Assembly: GCA_964534285.1 (NCBI GenBank)
Contig: CAZHQV010000001.1
Span: 6,856 to 45,824, forward strand
Direction of reading: 5' to 3'
Length of the DNA stretch: 38,969 nt
Source: an uncultured Dehalococcoidales bacterium
Lineage (GTDB): Bacteria; Chloroflexota; Dehalococcoidia; GIF9; AB-539-J10
Within the stretch, counting starts at the first letter, position 1. The number at the start of each line of letters is the position of its first letter. Below are positions 3,607 to 38,257 of this stretch, one piece after another. The notes beneath the pieces are model-generated. The model was not told the origin of the DNA. It ran no database searches and saw only the letters and a list, made by a program, of their open reading frames with translations. The position numbers and the translations under genes were made by a program.

Positions 3607-4056
3607 ATGGATACCCTAGCCGAGTCCATGGATTTAGTGGGACACCTATTGGCATCAGAGCGGCTTGCCGTGCTTTCGACGCAGTATGGTGGGCAGCCAT
3701 ACAGCAACCTTATAGCATTTGCCTATACAGATAACCTGAAATATCTAATCTTCGTGACTAGTCGCAACACGCGCAAGTATGGCAATGTGTTGGCAGACAA
3801 AAGAGTGGCGGTTCTGGTTGATAGCAGGAAGCACGATACATCTGATTTTAAAGGTGCGATGGCAATAACGGCTCTAGGCACTGCGGAGGAAGGCACAGGC
3901 AGCGAAAGGGAGGAACTCTTGCGAGTGTACCTTGCCAAACATCCCCATCTGGAAGGCTTCGCGAACAACAGATCTAGTGCCCTCATTAAGATAAGCATAA
4001 GTGACTATATCATTGCACGTTTCGACAGTGTGCGCACTCTGCACATCAGCGATTGA
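3607..4056 (+). CDS. Pyridoxamine 5'-phosphate oxidase-family (FMN-binding split-barrel) protein
   Basis: 149-aa ORF. The N-terminal LAVLSTQYGGQPYSNLIAF and the later RKYGNVLADKRVAVLV are typical of PNPOx-like split-barrel proteins. Confidence 0.7.
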   Translation: MDTLAESMDLVGHLLASERLAVLSTQYGGQPYSNLIAFAYTDNLKYLIFVTSRNTRKYGNVLADKRVAVLVDSRKHDTSDFKGAMAITALGTAEEGTGSEREELLRVYLAKHPHLEGFANNRSSALIKISISDYIIARFDSVRTLHISD

Positions 4057-4080
4057 GGCTTGTCCTGTTGTCGCAGCCAG

Positions 4081-4989
4081 ATGAAAATAGGATACCCATG
4101 TATTAACTGGACCATTGGATGTAAGGGCGACCGTACGTTCCGTCTGAAATCGTACTCCGAAATGCGTCTCATAGATACGGCTGCTAACAACCTCAACTGC
4201 CTGCTCCAGATGCTCAGGTTCAATGTAGACCATGACATCCTGTTCTTCAGAATCACCTCTGACCTTATTCCCTTGGCCTCACACCCTATCTGCCAATTTG
4301 ACTGGCCCACTTACTTCCGAGACAAGTTGGCTGAAATTGGTGCTTATGTCAGGGCACACCATATAAGGATCTCTATGCACCCGGGCCAATTCGCTGTCAT
4401 CAATAGTCCGGTTGATGACGTATTTGAAAACACCATCAAGGAACTGAGGTACCACGTAAAGGTTCTTGATGCCATGGGTCTGGATAGCACGGCCAAAATA
4501 CAGCTCCACGTCGGCGGGGTCTACGGGAATAAAGAAGGGAGTATTTGGCGCTTTGTCCAGCGGTACGATAGCCTTGACGAAGCGATCAAACGCAGGCTCG
4601 TTATTGAAAATGATGACCGAGCCTATACGGTAAGGGATTGTCTCCGCATATACGCTGAGACCGGTGTGCCTATTCTCGTAGACGTTCTCCACCACGAACT
4701 GAATAGCTCTGGAGAAAGCATTGCACAGGCGATCACGCGCCTCAGCAGGACATGGGGAGAAAAAGCCGGCATACTCATGGTTGACTATAGCTCACAAAAG
4801 GGAGGTGGTTCTAGAGGCAGCCATACTGACTCAATTGATCTTGCCCATTTTGAACGTTTTCTCAGAGAGACACAACCAACTGATTTTGACATCATGCTAG
4901 AGATCAAAGACAAGGAAAGAAGCGCGTTTAAGGCAGTGCCAGTGGCCAGGAAGGATCAGCGGTTCTTCACAGGGCTAGAACGGTGTTAG
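4081..4989 (+). CDS. uvsE: UV DNA damage endonuclease (UvdE/UvsE)
   Basis: MKIGYPCIN... N-terminus with a TIM-barrel UVDE-like sequence throughout (HPGQF, IENDD, DVLHH). The ORF track begins at a TTG at 4060. The ATG at 4081 gives the canonical N-terminus. Confidence 0.85.
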   Translation: MKIGYPCINWTIGCKGDRTFRLKSYSEMRLIDTAANNLNCLLQMLRFNVDHDILFFRITSDLIPLASHPICQFDWPTYFRDKLAEIGAYVRAHHIRISMHPGQFAVINSPVDDVFENTIKELRYHVKVLDAMGLDSTAKIQLHVGGVYGNKEGSIWRFVQRYDSLDEAIKRRLVIENDDRAYTVRDCLRIYAETGVPILVDVLHHELNSSGESIAQAITRLSRTWGEKAGILMVDYSSQKGGGSRGSHTDSIDLAHFERFLRETQPTDFDIMLEIKDKERSAFKAVPVARKDQRFFTGLERC

Positions 4990-5273
4990 GCAACCTGCTG
5001 CTCTTATCCACCACGTAGGATTGAAGTCGCCAGCCACCTCCGTGTTTCAAGGATTGATGCCGAAGTATTGTCGCCAGCGTGGATGTGTGTTCCCGTGGCG
5101 GCACACCCCTAATGCGTACCATATCATGGGTTCAGAACTCATACGGCAAGTCGCCCTTGCCCCCAGATATCCAAAAAGATAGCTCCATAGATATCGTAAA
5201 GACATAACTAGCATCAAATAAGTGTGCGAACAGCAGTACTTGATATGGTGGTTCAGCTTGCTTTCTTCAGAGT

Positions 5274-5735
5274 CTAGAGGTATTCTGCCGGTGTTCCCCA
5301 ACGCTCTCTAACATCGTAACGTGGCTCCTTCGCATGGAAATGGACTACTATCGGGGCAGAGTCAAGAGCTGGGTGAGCATCAAAGAAATGTCGATCGCCG
5401 AAACGGAATGCCTCCAAAGCACCAGATAACTCCCTCCTGAATATTGCATCACGTAGCTTGGCCGGACCGAAGACCAGCCCTCCACTAACATGGCAGTGTA
5501 GCGCAAGGATCGGCTCACCCTGGTCTGTCTGCCATTCAGCCAGCACTTCGTCGCGCATCAACCGTGTATACCACCCGGAGACCTGGCGACGGTCGTAGTC
5601 CCTCCCGATTGTCAGGTACAGATCACCCGTCAAATCAGAGTGGGTGAGGGTATAGCGGCGGGGTGTGACCGGGCCATCTTCACCAATCCCTGGTAGGTAC
5701 CGTGTGCGCAGTTTCTCGGGACGGAGACGACTCAA
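5274..5735 (-). CDS. Staygreen (SGR) family protein, a Mg-dechelatase homologue
   Basis: 153-aa ORF with a TTG start preceded by GAGGAA. The sequence RYTLTHSDLTGDLYLTIGRDYD...WYTRLMRDEVLAEW...LHCHVSGG matches the Staygreen domain as I remember it. Confidence 0.7.
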   Translation of the reverse strand: MSRLRPEKLRTRYLPGIGEDGPVTPRRYTLTHSDLTGDLYLTIGRDYDRRQVSGWYTRLMRDEVLAEWQTDQGEPILALHCHVSGGLVFGPAKLRDAIFRRELSGALEAFRFGDRHFFDAHPALDSAPIVVHFHAKEPRYDVRERWGTPAEYL

Positions 5736-5792
5736 TTTGTTCCTCTTCCCTATCTAGAGTTGGACGCTGATACATACGCAACAAGCGCGGGC

Positions 5793-6284
5793 TCAGGGAT
5801 TCAGCACTAGTATAGACCCATTGAGGACCGTTGCGAAACTCACCCAGAGAATATAGGGCACTAGGAGTGCTCCTGCTATTGTAGAAATGCGGAAGAACTT
5901 AATTATCGTTACCAGGATCGCGATCCACAGAGCTATTATCACAATTAAGCCGTACAGGGGAGACTGGAGTCCAAAGAAAGCTATTGACCAAAGGGCATTA
6001 AGAATCAATTGTACCAAGAAGACCATCAGGGCTGTTCTGGTCTGGCGGTTCTCCAGGCCAGTGCGCCATACTAAGAACGCTGATACCGCCATTAGCAGAT
6101 ATAGTGTGATCCAGGCAGGTGCGAATAACCAGTTGGGTGGTGCAAATGGCGGCTTTTGCAGCGTTGCGTACCAGGTTGGAATAGCCCCCATGGTGAAAAT
6201 CGAACCAACGATGCCAGCGCACTGACAGGCGACAATGCTTATTACTAGTCTAACGATGTCCTTTGACCTCTTATTCCCAAGCAT
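5793..6284 (-). CDS. tspO: TspO/MBR tryptophan-rich sensory protein (tetrapyrrole-binding, 5 TM)
   Basis: 163-aa hydrophobic, Trp-rich ORF (PPFAPPNWLFAPAWITLYLLMAVSAFLVW, LILNALWS). ATG preceded by AGGAGAG. Confidence 0.85.
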   Translation of the reverse strand: MLGNKRSKDIVRLVISIVACQCAGIVGSIFTMGAIPTWYATLQKPPFAPPNWLFAPAWITLYLLMAVSAFLVWRTGLENRQTRTALMVFLVQLILNALWSIAFFGLQSPLYGLIVIIALWIAILVTIIKFFRISTIAGALLVPYILWVSFATVLNGSILVLNP

Positions 6285-6372
6285 GTTCGGTCTCTCCTGT
6301 GGTCACCTCATTCCTTTCCGCCACTAGCTGCCGCAGGTCGTCGTTATTACATTCCATTTGGCTCTGAAGTGT

Positions 6373-6495
6373 CTATCCAATTTTCTCCATGTCCTGACCG
6401 CAGCAGACAAGAGTACCGCCACCAACCTTGGTTACTGTCACCTCATTGCCGCACACGTTGCACCTGTACCTCTCGCCGACTTTTTCGACTGCCAT
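6373..6495 (-). CDS. Desulforedoxin (small Cys4 iron protein)
   Basis: The internal ATG at 6495 gives 40 aa, MAVEKVGERYRCNVCGNEVTVTKVGGGTLVCCGQDMEKIG. It has CxxC and the adjacent CC, matching the classic desulforedoxin pattern. A strong SD (AAGGAGG) lies 7 nt upstream. The longer 67-aa listed ORF has a non-protein-like N-terminus. Confidence 0.8.
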   Translation of the reverse strand: MAVEKVGERYRCNVCGNEVTVTKVGGGTLVCCGQDMEKIG

Positions 6496-7182
6496 CTGTT
6501 CACCCTCCTTTTCTCTCCCAGACCGGGAGTTCACTCCGCCCGCTCTCAACACCCGGGCTGCCCCGGATGTCCACAACAGCTCTGCCGCTTCACTATCTTT
6601 ATGAGATTGTTGCGGAAGACCAGATAGAGTTTCCTGTGAACAGGCATGGGGACTGACATATTAGTGAAAAACGCCCTTACACTTGGCATGTTAGCTTGTC
6701 ACCACCCTACTTGAATATACTCTATCTATTGTAGCATCTATGTCTACAATCTGGTACGTTGGAGTGCTTAGCGCTGGAAAGCCGGTCCTTTCTGGCTATG
6801 ATTTCCTGTGCTCAGGCTGTATGCCGGCCAACGAGGTTAATGTCTCCAACTTCCTGTTGATGACTTTGGGTGCCATATCTCTCAATCGTCGCCGTGGTAG
6901 ACTAAGCCTATGTCCATCTCCTTCACCTTCAGGTCCGAAACAGGGAATACTAATATGGGTGGAAATAATGGTGAAGGTGGTTCCGGTAATGGTAACGAGG
7001 CAGCGACTCTCGCAAAGTAGCGAAGCTGCGCAGACTCTAGTTGAACAGGCTGAAAGGCCAGCCCTGCAATGACGCAAGCGACATCGCGATTCCAGAAACT
7101 GGAATCGTTGCACCCGCTGCCGAGACTGCGTGAGGGTCGAAACGCGCTGAGGCTATCTGTGGATGACCCCTCTGCTTATCTC

Positions 7183-7947
7183 TCATTGAAGCAAATCGAG
7201 CACGGTCGTGTGGAGTCTTCCATTAGAGAACAGCAGGTCGCTTGTTTCTGGTTTCCATGGATGGCCGTCGAAATCGGTTACCTTTCCCCCTGCCTCTTGA
7301 ACCAAGAGCACCCCCGGGGCCACATCCCAAGGTTCGATCCTGGTTGTGAAGTAGGCCTCCCCTCTTCCAGCAGCTACCCATGAGGTTTCCAAGCCAGCTG
7401 AGCCAAGTTTCCGTATGTCCATAGCTTTCGGGTAGACCTTGCTCAAGATGCTGCCGGTTCTCATTCTATCCCTCTCCCCACCCTCGCAGTAGAATAGATA
7501 ACTGTGCCCAAGATCGGAAGTCTCAGAAACGTGAATCCTTCTTCGATTGAGATAGGCGCCACCTCCTTTTTCTGCCAAGTAGAATTCCCTGATTGCTGGC
7601 GCGTAGACTGTGCCTAGAATAAGCTCTCCCTTGTGCATCACCGCTATACAAACCGAAAACAGGGGATTTGAATTGGCAAAACCGCTAGTGGCATCGAGGG
7701 AATCCACAATCCAAAGCCAGTTGGGATCCCTCTTCAGCAGACCGCTCTCCTCCGTCAGCAAGCTGTGGTGGGGATACCTCTCCCTGATTTCTTGAACGAT
7801 GAGATCATCTACCATCTTGTCATATTGAGTTATGGCTTCCTTGACTGAATGGCGTTCTTTGAGCAATTGCTCATCTTTTCCGAAATGCGACAGCAGTGTG
7901 TCACCTGCTCGCTTGGCTAACTCCTCGATGAAGTCTATCATTGACAC
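7183..7947 (-). CDS. Inositol monophosphatase / FBPase-family phosphatase
   Basis: 254-aa ORF with LTEESG, WIVDSLDATSGF (the WxxDPIDGT-type motif) and WDVAPG. Confidence 0.85.
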   Translation of the reverse strand: MSMIDFIEELAKRAGDTLLSHFGKDEQLLKERHSVKEAITQYDKMVDDLIVQEIRERYPHHSLLTEESGLLKRDPNWLWIVDSLDATSGFANSNPLFSVCIAVMHKGELILGTVYAPAIREFYLAEKGGGAYLNRRRIHVSETSDLGHSYLFYCEGGERDRMRTGSILSKVYPKAMDIRKLGSAGLETSWVAAGRGEAYFTTRIEPWDVAPGVLLVQEAGGKVTDFDGHPWKPETSDLLFSNGRLHTTVLDLLQ

Positions 7948-17700: not shown

Positions 17701-18045
17701 CGTGCCCAGAAGCTTTACGTCGTACTTGTCAAGTATGCCGGCGTCGGATAACTCCACCGCCAGGTTTAGACCCGTCTGACCTCCAAGAGTGGGCAGCAAT
17801 CCGTCGGGACGCTCCCTCTCAATCACGCGGGCCAGGACTTGCACGGTGAGAGGCTCAATGTAGACGATGTCAGCAATGCCCTCATCGGTCATTATGGTAG
17901 CAGGGTTCGAGTTCACCAGGACTGTGGTGACGCCTTCTTCCCTCAGGGCCCGGCACGCCTGAGTTCCTGAATAGTCGAACTCGGCCGCTTGGCCGATGAT
18001 TATCGGTCCCGAGCCTATGACTAAGACTTTAGATATTTTGGACAT
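14770..18045 (-). CDS. carB: Carbamoyl-phosphate synthase large subunit
   Basis: Duplicated ATP-grasp architecture plus an MGS-like C-terminus. Canonical N-terminus [27 protein letters not shown] from the ATG at 18045. The listed ORF adds 17 non-conserved codons. Confidence 0.95.
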
Positions 18046-18049
18046 ATTC

Positions 18050-19138
18050 TCACTGCTCACTAGATTCCATCTGTTGGCATAGAGCCATAACAGCATCTTG
18101 AAAGTTCCTTAGATTTTCTGCTTCCGTAAGAACCATTGTTGTTATACCAGGGAATTTACCGATGCTTACAACCTCTTCACGGATGTTAATACCCGGAATC
18201 TCATTTAATTTTGCTCTGAAGGATTCTAAAATCACTTCTTTTACGTTTGTGCCTTTCATTTGTCCAAAGTTGAGCCAAATCCAACCATCGGACTGAACTG
18301 TGAAAATTGAGACCAAGATTCCAAATCTTAGCTTGCGAAAGGTGAACGACCCTACCAATGCTCCGGTCCCCCAAGATGTCTTATCTGCGTTGCTCTTGGT
18401 GAAGTCATATAGTTCCTTAACGGTATTTACTGCCTCTTCCTCACATTTTCCTTCTAAATCGGTGAAGAACCTTTCCTCATCCCAATGCTTTCTTTTCTCG
18501 CGTGTTTTGGTAATTCTAGTAGCATATCCAAATAATGATGGGATTAAAATGCTCCTCGACCTACTTTCCTCGAAGCTACTTACCTGGAGAAGCAGAATAT
18601 CAAAATTACTGTAGGAATTAAGGAAGGTAACGGTTGCCCTGAGCGGCTCAACAAGCTCGTCTACTGCTATAATGCATCGTATTTTACCGTCTATTAGGTT
18701 CTGCTCGATGTTAGACCTGAAATCCTCAGCCAAAAATTCCTCTTCACTCCTTTCCCCTATAATTTCATCAAGATTCGATTTTAGGTAACCGTTGGCCACT
18801 CTATAGACATCATCTGCCGTCCACTTCGATATGTAAGAGGCGTATTCTATGATCTGTCCAATAACTGTGCGGCGTGCCTCAGGATTTCTAGCCAACTTAG
18901 TCTCTATTACAGTTAGAAGCCCATCTTTATCAATAAAGAGTAAATCTATAGACCCTGAAGGAACACCGACTTCCCTCCCGATGCATAGAAGGTCAGAGGC
19001 ACCCTCTACTATTTCCCCTAGCGGGATTAAAGACGGATACTTCTCCAGATAATCCTGCAACTTACCCTCCTCAGTGAATCTAGTCTTGTCTAGGGGTGTT
19101 GCTTTGTCTCCTTCAATAACCAGTATCATTCCCATCAT
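18050..19138 (-). CDS. Hypothetical protein with an N-terminal PD-(D/E)xK (NucS/DUF91-like) nuclease domain and an unrecognised ~230-aa C-terminal region
   Basis: 362-aa [19 protein letters not shown]...[54 protein letters not shown] fits the RecB-like nuclease pattern (D...D...ExK...Q..Y). The DNA is AT-rich compared with its flanks. Its stop lies 4 nt before the carB ATG. Confidence 0.6.
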
Positions 19139-19172: not shown

Positions 19173-19580
19173 TCATTGACTCTTCTCTATTACACAAGCA
19201 GCTATGCTAGGGAAGGGGTCAGGGTACAATTCGTTCACGTATCCCCATACTACGACTTTGTCCCCATCGGATAGCTTACGACATGCTGAGTTAACCCATT
19301 TTCGCCAAGGCGAATTCGTAGTCACCTTGTAAATGTGACCGTCTCTACCATACAGGTAGAACTCATAATGATCTTCGATGTACCACAAGTCAGAAATCGT
19401 GCCGTAAACGTACACATCATCCATAAAATACAAATCTGGCAACAATACCAAGGCACTCCAATTAGCCTCCACTGCATCGCTTTTGTCATATTTCAGTCCA
19501 GGCTGACTTAACCACCACACCCCCACTACTATGAGCCCAATCACCACGGCTGCTATCAAAACATACTTCCAACGTTTCAT
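19173..19580 (-). CDS. Hypothetical membrane-anchored protein (one N-terminal TM helix plus a ~100-aa soluble domain)
   Basis: The internal ATG at 19580 (GGAAGGGAA upstream) gives MKRWKYVLIAAVVIGLIVVGVWWLSQPG... The longer listed ORF would overlap the carA 3' end. AT-rich like its neighbour. Confidence 0.5.
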   Translation of the reverse strand: MKRWKYVLIAAVVIGLIVVGVWWLSQPGLKYDKSDAVEANWSALVLLPDLYFMDDVYVYGTISDLWYIEDHYEFYLYGRDGHIYKVTTNSPWRKWVNSACRKLSDGDKVVVWGYVNELYPDPFPSIAACVIEKSQ

Positions 19581-19599
19581 TTCCCTTCCTTCATGCCTT

Positions 19600-20712
19600 T
19601 CACCTCCCAACCATTTCCAGAAACCTCTCAAATAGACACATATTGTCATAAGGGCCGGGGCAAGCTTCTGCGCTGTACTGAACAGACAGAATGGGCAAAT
19701 CCCGGTGGCGGAGACCCTCCACCGTGCCATCGTTCAAGTTCATGTGGCTAACCTCAAGTCCTCCTTTCAAAGTATCGGCGTCTATGGCATAGCCATGGTT
19801 CTGGGCAGTGATGTGGATCTTGCCAGTGACCAAGTCTCGCACAGGATAGCTGCCTCGATGCCCGAACTTGAGCTTCATGTTTTTCGCACCAAAGGCCTGA
19901 CCAATCAGATTGAGCCCCAAGCCAATACCCAGTATTGGCTTTTTCTCGAGAAGTTTTTCTATTGTCTTCACCACATAATCGAGCAGACCGGGGGTGCCTG
20001 GACCAGATGACAGTACAATACCATCGGCAGCTAGAGTCAGGATGTCTTCTCCTGAGCTGGTGTATGGGACAACAGTCATTCGACAGCCAAGTTGGCTCAA
20101 GATGCGCAGTATGTTGTATTTCAAACCCAGATCAACAACTACGAGGTGGATGCCATTTGGCTGCTTGCTCCCAGCCAATAGCGGTCGGTCATCACCCTCA
20201 CGAGGCTGCCACTCGTATGAGTTCTCGGTGCTAACTTGACGGACAAGGTCAAGTGAGGCATAGGTGGGCAAGCCTCTCAGCTCTTCTAGTGCCTCTTCAG
20301 CTGTTACTTCCGAAGTGAGGATACCCATCATAGCTCCTTCCGAGCGTATGTGGCGCGTCAAAGCGCGTGTATCTATGCCACTAATTCCGGGAATGCCGTA
20401 AGCAAGCAGAAATTCGTGTAGAGTGCGGGTGCTTTGCCAGTGACTGGGTTGGAAGCAACATTCTCGGACAGCTAGACCTCTTACCTGGACTCCCCCGGAT
20501 TCGAAATCCATTTCATTGATGCCGTAGTTGCCCACCAAAGGATACGTAGGAACTAAGATTTGGCCAGCAAACGAGGGATCTGTGAGCATCTCCTGATAGC
20601 CTGTCATGCTAGTGTCGAAAACAACCTCACCACAGGCTGTGCTCTGGGCACCAAAGGCATCCCCTTCGTAAACTGAGCCATCCTCAAGAACTAGAATAGC
20701 TTTCTCAGTCAT
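19600..20712 (-). CDS. carA: Carbamoyl-phosphate synthase small (glutamine amidotransferase) subunit
   Basis: 370-aa ORF with the CarA N-domain MTEKAILVLEDGSVYEGDAFG and a class I GATase C-domain (ILGIGLG, HRGSYPV). Confidence 0.95.
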   Translation of the reverse strand: MTEKAILVLEDGSVYEGDAFGAQSTACGEVVFDTSMTGYQEMLTDPSFAGQILVPTYPLVGNYGINEMDFESGGVQVRGLAVRECCFQPSHWQSTRTLHEFLLAYGIPGISGIDTRALTRHIRSEGAMMGILTSEVTAEEALEELRGLPTYASLDLVRQVSTENSYEWQPREGDDRPLLAGSKQPNGIHLVVVDLGLKYNILRILSQLGCRMTVVPYTSSGEDILTLAADGIVLSSGPGTPGLLDYVVKTIEKLLEKKPILGIGLGLNLIGQAFGAKNMKLKFGHRGSYPVRDLVTGKIHITAQNHGYAIDADTLKGGLEVSHMNLNDGTVEGLRHRDLPILSVQYSAEACPGPYDNMCLFERFLEMVGR

Positions 20713-36116: not shown

Positions 36117-37556
36117 TCAATCCATTATGCCCGGGATTTCTGATAACACTTTCTTCCTAACAGAAGATGGGAGTCTGAACTCATGTTCGGAAAGGAGTTG
36201 CGAAACCCTCTCCTTTGCTCTCCTACAGGCATCCTTCCTCCCTTCGCTCTCCCATTGCTCCCTGGTGAGTCGGTCACTCAAGCTAGGGTAGTAATGCTCA
36301 CTGCGCATGTGCTTCCTGGTATGCGCGGAGGAGATAAAGTGCCCTCCTGGGCCCACCTCCTTAATGACATCAAAGGCAAGCGTATCGTCATCCACCTTTA
36401 CGCCCTCCACTGCACGCATGACCATACCCAGAATCTCGTTATCTATGACATACTTCTCATAGCTCACACTGAGGGCGAATTCCATCATGCCGGCAGCGTC
36501 GTGAATGAAGTTAGCGCCTGCCAAGGCGCAAAGAAGGCTAGTGAGAGCCGACTCATAGCCGCACTGAGCATCAACGACCTTGGCATCGGACATCCCAGCG
36601 GTGGCATAGAACGGGAGCTGGTAGAATTGGGCCATCTGAGCCGCGGCGGCGTTCAACAAGCCCATTTCAATGGAGCCTGTTACATACTTCAAATCTCTTA
36701 GGTCTGTGTTGCTGGCCACAGAGCCATAGATTACAGGTGTGCCTGAATTGACAATCTGAGTCACCAGCACCCCGGCGAGGGAGTCCACATTCTGTATCAC
36801 CAGAGTTCCTGCTAAGGTTACTGGAGACGTGGCTCCGCACAGCGGCTCTGCCGGGCACACTACCGGCACCCCTGCTTTGGCGATTTGCACGAGCATGTCG
36901 CCATAGAGCCCGTCTATCTTCAGGGGACTTATGCTGCAGGTTATCATCGAGATGAGTGGCCTGCGGCGAAGTTCCTGTGGCGAACCGCGGATGATCTCTG
37001 CCATCCTTATGGCTTGCCTTATGCCGTCGAGCGTGTAGACGCCTCCCATAACATGCTTGGTGGTGTTGTCCAGTGCAGCGAAGAAACGGTTGACATCTAC
37101 GTGTTCAGGAGTAACATCACTCGGATAAACAGGGAGCATGAAGAGGTGGATGTTCTCCAGCTTGTCTACAAGCCGAGTTATGCGCTTGAGGTCGTCGAGG
37201 GTTGCCTGCCTGCTCAGACCTGTGTCTGAATCAACGATGTTGAGTGCGGTGCCACCGGTCCCTGCGTAGACCTTGGTACCACCCAACAGAACATCATGGT
37301 CTTCATCTTGACCGCATAGTCTAACCTGGGACGGGGCTGTACTCAGGAGATCCATAACCATCCGCGAAGGCATCCTCACGATACGCCTTTCGCTATCAAC
37401 CCAAGCTCCTGCCTGGCTGAAGAGACCGAGCGCGGTTTCCGAGTTTACCTCGAAGCCTACTTCCTCGAAGACCCTTAATGAAGCTTGGTGGATTTTGTCT
37501 ATGGATTCTTGAGAGAGGGGTTTATAACTACCCCCCTCCAAGCCCTTTCGACTCAT
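36117..37556 (-). CDS. MttB-superfamily protein, non-pyrrolysine type, paralogue 1
   Basis: The ATG at 37556 (ATGA overlap with the upstream gene) gives MSRKGLEGGSYKPLSQESIDKIHQASLRVFEEVGF... The internal FFAALDNTTKHVMGG...IRMAEIIRG matches the family. Uninterrupted frame. Confidence 0.85.
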   Translation of the reverse strand: MSRKGLEGGSYKPLSQESIDKIHQASLRVFEEVGFEVNSETALGLFSQAGAWVDSERRIVRMPSRMVMDLLSTAPSQVRLCGQDEDHDVLLGGTKVYAGTGGTALNIVDSDTGLSRQATLDDLKRITRLVDKLENIHLFMLPVYPSDVTPEHVDVNRFFAALDNTTKHVMGGVYTLDGIRQAIRMAEIIRGSPQELRRRPLISMITCSISPLKIDGLYGDMLVQIAKAGVPVVCPAEPLCGATSPVTLAGTLVIQNVDSLAGVLVTQIVNSGTPVIYGSVASNTDLRDLKYVTGSIEMGLLNAAAAQMAQFYQLPFYATAGMSDAKVVDAQCGYESALTSLLCALAGANFIHDAAGMMEFALSVSYEKYVIDNEILGMVMRAVEGVKVDDDTLAFDVIKEVGPGGHFISSAHTRKHMRSEHYYPSLSDRLTREQWESEGRKDACRRAKERVSQLLSEHEFRLPSSVRKKVLSEIPGIMD

Positions 37557-38257
37557 AACCTTCTGCTGGGACAGTCCGTCTTGTTGCAGAAAAGACAGGG
37601 AGAGAGGGTTATAGAGGGATCGAAGCCTATGCCTATGATCCCGGAGATAGATTTCCTGGGCATCATTAGGCAATCCTCAGTCAATTCAACTCCTTGCAAA
37701 TCTCCATCGAGAGCATTGAATAGCACCTTCTGCTGTCTGATGTCCCAATCGCAGTAGCCTGGGCTATAGCGCAGGCTTACGTCGGCGCCGCTTGCCGCAG
37801 CCGTCTCCCTGACGCTTCCTTCAAGCCAACAAGCCAGCTCCTCAACTGCTTCACTGCCTACAGCATCCAATACTGCGCCTTTGAGTATTTCGCCGGCATC
37901 CATTAGCCGTAACACCCTATCCTCTAATCTCGGTCCGATCGTGGTCAAGAATATGGCCGCTTTGGAGCACTTGGAGAGTATTCGCCGGGCGATTATGTTG
38001 CTGCTAAATACTATGTTGGTTCCCCTCACTGATATGCGAGAACCGTCAACACTGTCTACCTCTCTGATTACACATGAATACCAAGGCTGGATAAGCCCAT
38101 AGGCTTCCGATATTTGTTCATCTATTACCGAAGATATATGTGCTGTAGGTTCCCTCTCGGCCGCATAGCCCAAATATCTATGTACTTCCCTTCTGTCGAT
38201 ACTTATTTTGTCTGTTGCTAAGGTGCGCACCACCGAATTCCCTTGGTATTTTCTCAC
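37553..38257 (-). CDS. Stand-alone vitamin-B12-dependent methionine synthase activation-domain (SAM-binding reactivation module) protein
   Basis: 234-aa ORF with a GTG start. ...LRYSPGYCDWDIRQQKVLFNAL...GVELTEDCLMMPRKSISGIIGIG matches the Met_synt_B12 (PF02965) pattern RxSPGY.DW...Q..lf. Confidence 0.7.
   Translation of the reverse strand: MRKYQGNSVVRTLATDKISIDRREVHRYLGYAAEREPTAHISSVIDEQISEAYGLIQPWYSCVIREVDSVDGSRISVRGTNIVFSSNIIARRILSKCSKAAIFLTTIGPRLEDRVLRLMDAGEILKGAVLDAVGSEAVEELACWLEGSVRETAAASGADVSLRYSPGYCDWDIRQQKVLFNALDGDLQGVELTEDCLMMPRKSISGIIGIGFDPSITLSPCLFCNKTDCPSRRL

Follow-up and report, generated by a model that had tools for sequence, protein, structure and literature searches.

A minus-strand desulforedoxin-TspO-Staygreen gene block in a Dehalococcoidia-like genome, and the light/UV-response neighbourhoods of Staygreen homologues

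The genes of the block

The window analyzed here is a stretch of 38,969 nucleotides from contig CAZHQV010000001.1 of an uncultured Dehalococcoidales bacterium, and our subject is a block of three minus-strand genes within it, extending from position 6495 to position 5274. They encode a desulforedoxin of 40 amino acids (aa), a TspO protein of 163 aa and a Staygreen (SGR) homologue of 153 aa, and together they span 1222 bp. An earlier note, made from the sequence alone, had placed these three genes on one strand within 1.2 kb, and this is what is found. Read 5' to 3' on the minus strand, the order is small open reading frame (ORF), desulforedoxin, TspO and SGR, with spacers of 50 nt between the small ORF and desulforedoxin, 88 nt between desulforedoxin and TspO and 57 nt between TspO and SGR. 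We infer that the block is one transcription unit.

The SGR gene (5274..5735, minus strand) begins with TTG and encodes a homologue of the SGR-family Mg-dechelatases. It matches the Pfam Staygreen profile PF12638 with E 8.7e-46 and 155.8 bits (cut-off 27), over profile positions 2-147 of 147, and it matches PDB entry 7Y5Y, a "Staygreen domain-containing protein", with E 5e-57, the alignment being ungapped over 152 residues at about 60% identity. The TTG start is the same in the closest relative and aligns with residue 1 of the crystallized homologue. Entry 7Y5Y is AbSGR-h (KPK94580) from Anaerolineae bacterium SM23_63, which belongs to the same Pfam family and whose source, like the host of the window, is a non-phototrophic member of the Chloroflexota. 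Mutagenesis of AbSGR-h showed that D34 and D62 are catalytic and that R26, Y28, T29 and D114 are structural (PMC8531759). In the ungapped alignment all six of these required residues are kept in the window SGR, and they are invariant or nearly so among 26 relatives. AbSGR-h strips Mg from chlorophyll derivatives at high activity, above that of the plant enzymes, and discriminates among these derivatives by their ring substituents (PMC8531759, PMC11006732). By homology, the window SGR is predicted to remove Mg from chlorophyll-type pigments.

Plant SGR and SGRL, of the PAO/phyllobilin pathway, resemble the window SGR in family and in presumed chemistry, the removal of Mg from chlorophyll a or chlorophyllide a. 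In contrast to the plant proteins, the window SGR is found without a chloroplast or photosystem context and without PPH, CLH, PAO or RCCR partners, and its neighbours are stress and repair genes rather than catabolic enzymes. The plant chlorophyll-degradation enzyme is thought to be derived from bacterial Staygreen homologues.

The middle gene (5793..6284, minus strand) encodes a TspO/MBR tryptophan-rich sensory protein, which matches PF03073 with E 6e-50 and 169.2 bits (cut-off 24) over 142 of 145 profile positions. Like the bacterial TspO proteins of R. sphaeroides, Bacillus cereus and Chlorobium it has a full-length TspO/MBR domain, and the structures of R. sphaeroides TspO (RsTspO; chains 8E7X and 4UC1) are strongly matched, with E values from 5e-22 to 2e-20. 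Against NF047825, the alphaproteobacterial TspO equivalog model, the E value is 4e-40 and the score of 137.4 bits lies below the cut-off of 180; the protein is a TspO family member outside this alphaproteobacterial orthologue group. Porphyrins are ligands of bacterial TspO proteins, some of which promote the light/oxygen-dependent degradation of protoporphyrin IX. RsTspO, from a phototroph, lowers the expression of pigment genes and has its own gene within a photosynthesis gene cluster; unlike it, the window TspO has no photosynthesis genes in view and is partnered by a dechelatase.

The first gene of the trio (6373..6495, minus strand) encodes a stand-alone desulforedoxin with the Fe(Cys)4 ligand pattern CxxC...CC. 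Matches were obtained to PF06397 (E 1.1e-17, 63.8 bits, cut-off 23), to TIGR00319 (E 1.1e-12, 47.4 bits, cut-off 36) and to the D. gigas desulforedoxin 1DXG (E 8.7e-9), with which it shares its small size, its Pfam domain and the ligands, the motif C-N-V-C ... C-C being aligned. The stop codon is followed by the 88-nt spacer, so that the protein is not joined to a superoxide reductase domain, and the 39-kb window encodes no domain of this kind. An AAGGAGG Shine-Dalgarno sequence lies 8 nt upstream of the start of the 40-aa form. In the closest relative with the full block (L001, positions 3626-3640) this Shine-Dalgarno sequence is kept and ACG stands where the window gene has ATG (6493-6495), while an in-frame alternative start lies 13-14 codons upstream in both, GTG at 6534 in the window and ATG in L001. 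The true start in L001 is therefore uncertain. Longer forms of 53 or 67 aa are disfavoured by the 41-aa orthologues of two other loci (L084 and L102) and by the strong Shine-Dalgarno sequence, the ACG of L001 speaking otherwise. For the window protein the sequence comparison leads us to favour the 40-aa form.

These matches uphold the family assignments of the earlier note: the 153-aa ORF clearly belongs to the Staygreen family, TspO_MBR is recognized by its profile, and the small Fe(Cys)4 protein is a desulforedoxin that keeps the 1DXG ligands. Its remark that the segment carries no photosynthesis genes is likewise correct for the 39-kb window, among whose ORFs a Pfam profile search detected none. 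All three proteins are ordinary members of known families, and what seems to be novel is their gene context.

The trio is confined to one close lineage

The conservation of the block was examined in two surveys. In the first, the best 80 of 443 SGR relatives were taken, one genome per species, with 54-72% identity and mostly from Chloroflexota and Bathyarchaeia; all reading frames of these 80 loci were searched with the three window proteins, a neighbour being a gene within 6 kb of SGR. The reverse survey started from TspO and covered its 80 closest relatives in metagenomes (54-75% identity). Canonical TspO was found near SGR at three of the 80 SGR loci (L001, L018 and L028) and desulforedoxin at one (L001), while none of the 80 TspO loci has SGR near TspO. 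These numbers rule out the trio as a widespread conserved module.

The full trio in the same order occurs in one close lineage, represented by L001 and the near-identical L162. The similarity of these loci to the window, about 77% at the nucleotide level, extends from approximately 230 nt upstream of desulforedoxin to shortly past SGR, and the flanks are unrelated. Another locus (L161) is 92% identical to the window in nucleotide sequence over TspO-SGR, and there the similarity stops right after the SGR stop codon. The three genes are thus kept together as a block in a related genome, and the interpretation of the earlier note is upheld in part; as a general statement, its dedicated module was too strong.

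Desulforedoxin was also detected at two of the TspO loci (L084 and L102). At both it is downstream of TspO, with tRNA genes or PlsY between, so that the order, TspO and then desulforedoxin, differs from that in the window. From these arrangements it would seem that the association of desulforedoxin with TspO, and not that with SGR, is the older one.

SGR homologues lie among genes of the light and UV response

A stronger signal than the trio, missed in the earlier note, is that SGR homologues are embedded in neighbourhoods of light- and UV-response genes. For the 80 loci, the genes flanking SGR, three to a side, were clustered and annotated with Pfam, and all ORFs were searched again with hidden Markov models of the clusters. 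Within 6 kb of SGR, 37 of the 80 loci have one or more of four kinds of gene, mostly on the same strand: heliorhodopsin, photolyase, a CarH-like B12 regulator and the UV-damage endonuclease UvdE. Heliorhodopsin accounts for 16 loci (15 on the same strand and 14 within 2 kb), DNA photolyase for 14 (all on the same strand), a CarH/LitR-like regulator with MerR and B12-binding domains for 10 and UvdE for 6. At L029 and 15 more loci (examples are L007, L010, L017, L021, L030, L035, L037, L038, L045 and L064) heliorhodopsin is the co-directional gene directly 5' of SGR, and the two are often less than 100 nt apart; at L029 itself the heliorhodopsin gene occupies 5155-5955 (PF18761 E 1.5e-100; NF038020 375 bits) and SGR follows at 6001-6456. 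The other recurrent neighbours are an MFS transporter (21 loci), DUF1475 (16), a small AhpC/TSA-like protein (14), SDR-DUF2867 (12), DUF523/DUF1722 (10) and alpha/beta hydrolases of an Abhydrolase_5 type (9) and a 331-aa type (12).

As an internal control, the density of hits within 2 kb of SGR was compared with that 2-6 kb away. The near/far ratio is 8.4 for heliorhodopsin, 7.8 for the MFS transporter, 4.8 for the CarH-like regulator and 21 for a TspO-like family described below, a statistic that is partly circular because the neighbour families were picked for their recurrence near SGR. ABC ATPases, used as a control in the same procedure, gave a ratio of 1.0 without strand bias. In a neighbour-joining tree of SGR the light/UV neighbours are scattered over all clades. 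SGR is statistically associated with photoreceptor, photorepair and TspO-family genes.

In the window itself this association takes the form of a UvdE gene (4060..4989, plus strand; PF03851 E 2e-62, TIGR00629 E 7e-59) that is convergent with SGR. The SGR clade to which the window belongs includes two loci (L009 and L012) in which SGR is convergent with UvdE, as in the window, and TspO is absent, and a third (L002) in which SGR is convergent with an HhH-GPD DNA glycosylase gene and photolyase is 1 kb away. The UvdE gene beside the window SGR is part of the wider light/UV-response pattern of SGR loci. Unlike the heliorhodopsin/photolyase/CarH operons, the window has UvdE only, without a heliorhodopsin, photolyase or CarH-like gene.

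The neighbour families of SGR overlap with the published flanking-gene groups of heliorhodopsin in monoderm bacteria, which include photolyase, MerR regulators, SDR oxidoreductases and alpha/beta hydrolases (PMC11109279). Heliorhodopsin has been tied to light-induced oxidative stress (PMC8612252), which is in keeping with this overlap, and heliorhodopsins have also been connected with the regulation of neighbouring enzymes (PMC8612252, PMC11109279, PMC9769723). The main texts of PMC8612252 and PMC11109279 contain no mention of Staygreen, chlorophyll dechelation or TspO, nor of the heliorhodopsin-SGR pairing, and in a 2026 preprint on prokaryotic chlorophyll degradation (10.64898/2026.03.19.712979) gene neighbourhoods were not examined. 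The literature searched yielded no paper that connects TspO, heliorhodopsin or responses to light with the Staygreen proteins of bacteria, which fits the supposition of the earlier note that the linkage was undescribed.

TspO-family genes beside SGR in distant clades

The three canonical TspO-SGR juxtapositions represent three distant SGR clades. At L018 a co-directional run of photolyase, TspO and SGR is present, with TspO adjoining SGR, and at L028 a canonical TspO gene is near SGR. At seven further loci a membrane protein of a 261-290-aa family adjoins SGR on the same strand. Three of four members of this family match PF03073, with a best E value of 3e-7, and in a profile-profile comparison with TspO the whole TspO domain was aligned (E 1.7e-4, probability 49%). 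On the strength of these alignments we treat the family as a distant relative of TspO. With this assignment, a canonical or distant TspO-family gene is near SGR at 10 of the 80 loci, including the locus of the assayed enzyme. If genomes of a few Mb with one or a few copies of each gene are assumed, we estimate that the number of such loci expected by chance would be far below one.

The locus of the assayed enzyme deserves separate description. L055 encodes an SGR that is 100% identical to the assayed and crystallized AbSGR-h, as the last gene of a run on one strand (3874-6459, plus strand) that comprises SDR-DUF2867, DUF1475, a 290-aa ORF, a TspO-like gene, DUF4345, a 224-aa membrane protein and SGR. 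A related locus (L065) has a photolyase gene in addition. L055 differs from the window in that it has neither a canonical TspO nor a desulforedoxin, the distant TspO-like gene being present instead. Among the closest relatives of the window TspO, some are directly upstream of a pyrimidine-dimer glycosylase or DUF523/DUF1722 gene and others are near photolyase or UvdE.

A possible role in handling photosensitizing tetrapyrroles

Our best reading is that the block is a local version of a wider arrangement, in which light/UV-stress neighbourhoods of Chloroflexota and Bathyarchaeia have incorporated an SGR-family Mg-dechelatase. We propose tentatively, with a confidence that falls a little short of an even chance, that the block is a lineage-specific operon that sits in such a neighbourhood and handles photosensitizing tetrapyrroles in a non-phototrophic, anaerobic, Dehalococcoidia-like member of the Chloroflexota. 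The nearest relatives of the block carry the label Dehalococcoidia, and the gene content of the window, with aldehyde:ferredoxin oxidoreductase (AFOR), ferredoxins and MttB-type methyltransferases accompanied by corrinoid proteins, looks like that of an anaerobe.

According to this proposal, SGR would strip Mg from chlorophyll-type pigments, as has been shown for AbSGR-h, and since the cell presumably makes none of these pigments they would be taken from the surroundings. The product of SGR would then feed TspO, which, if it behaves like other bacterial TspO proteins, may bind the free-base tetrapyrrole at the membrane and aid its light/oxygen-dependent breakdown or removal. Desulforedoxin might supply or buffer electrons for oxidative-stress defence, a part of the scheme for which we would claim little. 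The net role would be to limit photosensitized damage alongside the UvdE encoded next door. In a broader and more doubtful version, the SGRs of non-phototrophic Chloroflexota and Bathyarchaeia would be light-response enzymes that are co-expressed with, and perhaps directly controlled by, heliorhodopsin or CarH-type photoreceptors and that disarm chlorophyll pigments acquired from phototrophic neighbours; the product without its metal would pass to TspO-family membrane proteins, to be exported or destroyed with the help of light, and the window block would be the minimal form of this system.

Several observations weigh against these proposals. The exact trio is limited to one narrow lineage, and 77 of the 80 SGR loci are without a canonical TspO and 79 without desulforedoxin, to which must be added the empty result of the reverse survey. 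The 80 SGR loci share ancestry and are not independent, and the near/far statistic carries the circularity noted above. Pheophytin and pheophorbide, the products of Mg removal, are themselves photosensitizers, and dechelation alone therefore does not detoxify. The Pfam families of dephytylase, PAO and RCCR are absent from the ORFs of the 39-kb window, the rest of the genome being outside our view. We considered the alpha/beta hydrolases beside SGR in other genomes as candidates for a chlorophyllase or pheophytinase, and these matched only generic esterases, meta-cleavage-product hydrolases and one uncharacterized structure. Finally, the evidence for a promoter and a terminator of the block is at the level of chance. 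On the side of an operon, no terminator-like sites were found in its spacers, by a scan that itself performs at chance level, and neither in the spacers nor after SGR do intrinsic terminators or stable structures exceed shuffled controls, a result that is to be read with the possibility that this phylum uses other signals.

The arrangement in the window can also be read as a merger of TspO plus desulforedoxin, as in L084 and L102, with an SGR that was convergent with UvdE, as in L009 and L012. Carried further, this becomes the first alternative to be weighed: rearrangement in a single Dehalococcoidia lineage placed the genes side by side by neutral juxtaposition, and TspO, desulforedoxin and SGR remain uncoupled and serve separate processes. 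The rarity of the linkage in both surveys, the different order of TspO and desulforedoxin at L084 and L102, the absence of TspO from the UvdE-convergent loci and the occurrence of the small ORF at the head of unrelated genes (serpin, GreA, methyltransferase) are all as this explanation would have it. It accounts less well for a block that has stayed intact in different flanks (L001/L162), on one strand and with short spacers, and for the repeated appearance of TspO-family genes beside SGR in distant clades, which on the assumed genome sizes exceeds the chance estimate. We consider neutral juxtaposition unlikely on balance.

A further alternative retains the association with light and removes the shared substrate. 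The genes might belong to a general light/oxidative-stress regulon in which TspO is a general stress or redox membrane protein, Mg-dechelatase is a side activity and the substrate of SGR is not chlorophyll. PMC8531759 describes the physiological role of the bacterial SGR homologues as unknown, and their activities, reported to be highly variable, have been interpreted as promiscuous in a bioRxiv preprint that summarizes earlier work (10.64898/2026.03.19.712979). In addition, sensors, regulators and DNA-repair genes predominate over tetrapyrrole enzymes among the neighbours of SGR, and the window contains no other chlorophyll-catabolic enzyme. A side activity is, however, difficult to reconcile with an AbSGR-h that outperforms the plant enzymes and is selective by ring substituents, or with the conservation in the window SGR of the residues required for activity, and the membrane proteins that recur beside SGR belong to the TspO family, whose best-known ligands are tetrapyrroles. 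We judge this regulon without a common substrate to be somewhat less probable again than neutral juxtaposition.

The last alternative, nutritional salvage unrelated to light, in which exogenous chlorophyll or porphyrin would serve a corrinoid-dependent anaerobe as a source of tetrapyrrole, Mg or carbon, draws on the corrinoid-dependent MttB methyltransferase systems encoded in the window and on the MFS transporters and alpha/beta hydrolases that are common same-strand neighbours of SGR elsewhere, and it seems to us improbable, because linked enzymes for ring opening or corrinoid remodelling are absent, photoreceptors and photolesion-repair genes are the specific neighbours that SGR has most often, and an MFS transporter and a hydrolase are both missing from the window block.

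The role of bacterial Staygreen is an acknowledged open question (PMC8531759), and the neighbourhoods described here, with their photoreceptors, photolesion repair and TspO-type proteins, give it a testable form. If the proposal of tetrapyrrole handling is true, it would show by what means non-phototrophs withstand chlorophyll as a photosensitizer when phototrophs are their neighbours, it would add a new client to the heliorhodopsin-associated enzymes, and it would point to an ancestral protective function for an enzyme later used by plants in leaf senescence.

The 5' end of the block

At the head of the block is a conserved small ORF of 47 aa, MPSVRAFFTNMSVPMPVHRKLYLVFRNNLIKIVKRQSCCGHPGQPGC (6546..6689, minus strand), recognized from its codon-position pattern and from its conservation with L001. 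The summed entropies at codon positions 1, 2 and 3 are 37.5, 27.2 and 62.5; variation at the third position dominates, and this shows that the ORF is translated. The conserved region of about 230 nt upstream of desulforedoxin was also considered as a known RNA element. It has no match in Rfam, and its codon-position pattern is that of the translated 47-aa ORF. The family consists of 47 protein clusters with 67-87% identity, including a "conserved hypothetical protein" of Dehalogenimonas lykanthroporepellens, and it matches no Pfam or NCBIfam model. The small protein is rich in Cys, with the consensus ...FFTNMSVPMPLHRKLYLVFRNNxIKIxKRQSCCGHPGEPGC, and the family appears to be confined to Dehalococcoidia-like genomes.

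Copies besides that of the window were found at L002, L089, L094, L107, L112 and L163-L176. In each case the small ORF is just 5' of a gene on the same strand, and the identity of this gene varies by genome: SGR alone at L002, TspO alone at L089, L094 and L112, and TspO surrounded by multiple copies at L107. As a specific marker of TspO or SGR the small ORF fails, since it is also present before serpin, DUF1330-like, Lin0512, methyltransferase, GreA and GGACT genes. The small ORF resembles a portable leader cassette and is not specific to tetrapyrrole genes.

A short GC hairpin, CTCCC-GGTCT-GGGAG (6515..6529, minus strand), separates the small ORF from the Shine-Dalgarno sequence of desulforedoxin and was identified from its recurrence and from weak covariation. 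In most copies of the small ORF it is located about 17 nt past the stop codon. Compensatory changes occur in two of four predicted pairs, which is weak support, and the minimum-energy fold of the window's own sequence differs. The 5' arm of the hairpin resembles an anti-Shine-Dalgarno sequence. Together the small ORF and the hairpin may constitute a leader or arrest-peptide cassette.

A promoter-like region 5' of the small ORF (6719..6746, minus strand), identified by consensus match only, includes an extended -10-like sequence, TGCTACAAT (6736..6728). This sequence is conserved in L001 and absent upstream of the other copies of the small ORF, and the number of promoter-like hits near the small ORF does not exceed the shuffled expectation. 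Between this region and the IMPase gene are about 440 nt (6740-7183) that are not conserved in L001. The only ORFs in them are unannotatable, including one of 110 aa (plus strand) and one of 105 aa (minus strand), and a single terminator-like hairpin is present at 6773-6796 of the plus strand.

Other features of the window

Upstream of UvdE and on the same strand is an ORF for a PNPOx-like split-barrel protein of FMN/F420 type (3607..4056, plus strand; PF01243 E 5.6e-10), which ends 4 nt before the UvdE ORF. Homologues with 35-55% identity are present at five SGR loci (L012, L022, L041, L058 and L074) and at four TspO loci (L087, L100, L101 and L144). Some members of the PNPOx superfamily act on haem or biliverdin.

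The remaining annotated ORFs of the window encode an HDAC, methyltransferases, the IMPase, L25, a GAF-PAS kinase, a cluster of pyrimidine biosynthesis genes and an M17 peptidase, in addition to the anaerobe-like genes named above. The G+C content dips to 0.42 at 18001-19000, compared with approximately 0.52 elsewhere, and the dip covers two minus-strand ORFs, 18050-19138 and 19173-19730, which have no Pfam match and are flanked by carB and carA. A match to Rfam PYLIS_3, the pyrrolysine insertion sequence of mttB, is located at 36494-36593 on the minus strand, with 54 bits against a gathering score of 38 and E 1.7e-8. It falls inside an MttB-family ORF (36117-37673, minus strand), and the cluster that holds this ORF also encodes another MttB homologue, a corrinoid protein and a methyltransferase of the pterin-binding type. 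The match may point to a methylamine metabolism related to pyrrolysine in this member of the Chloroflexota.

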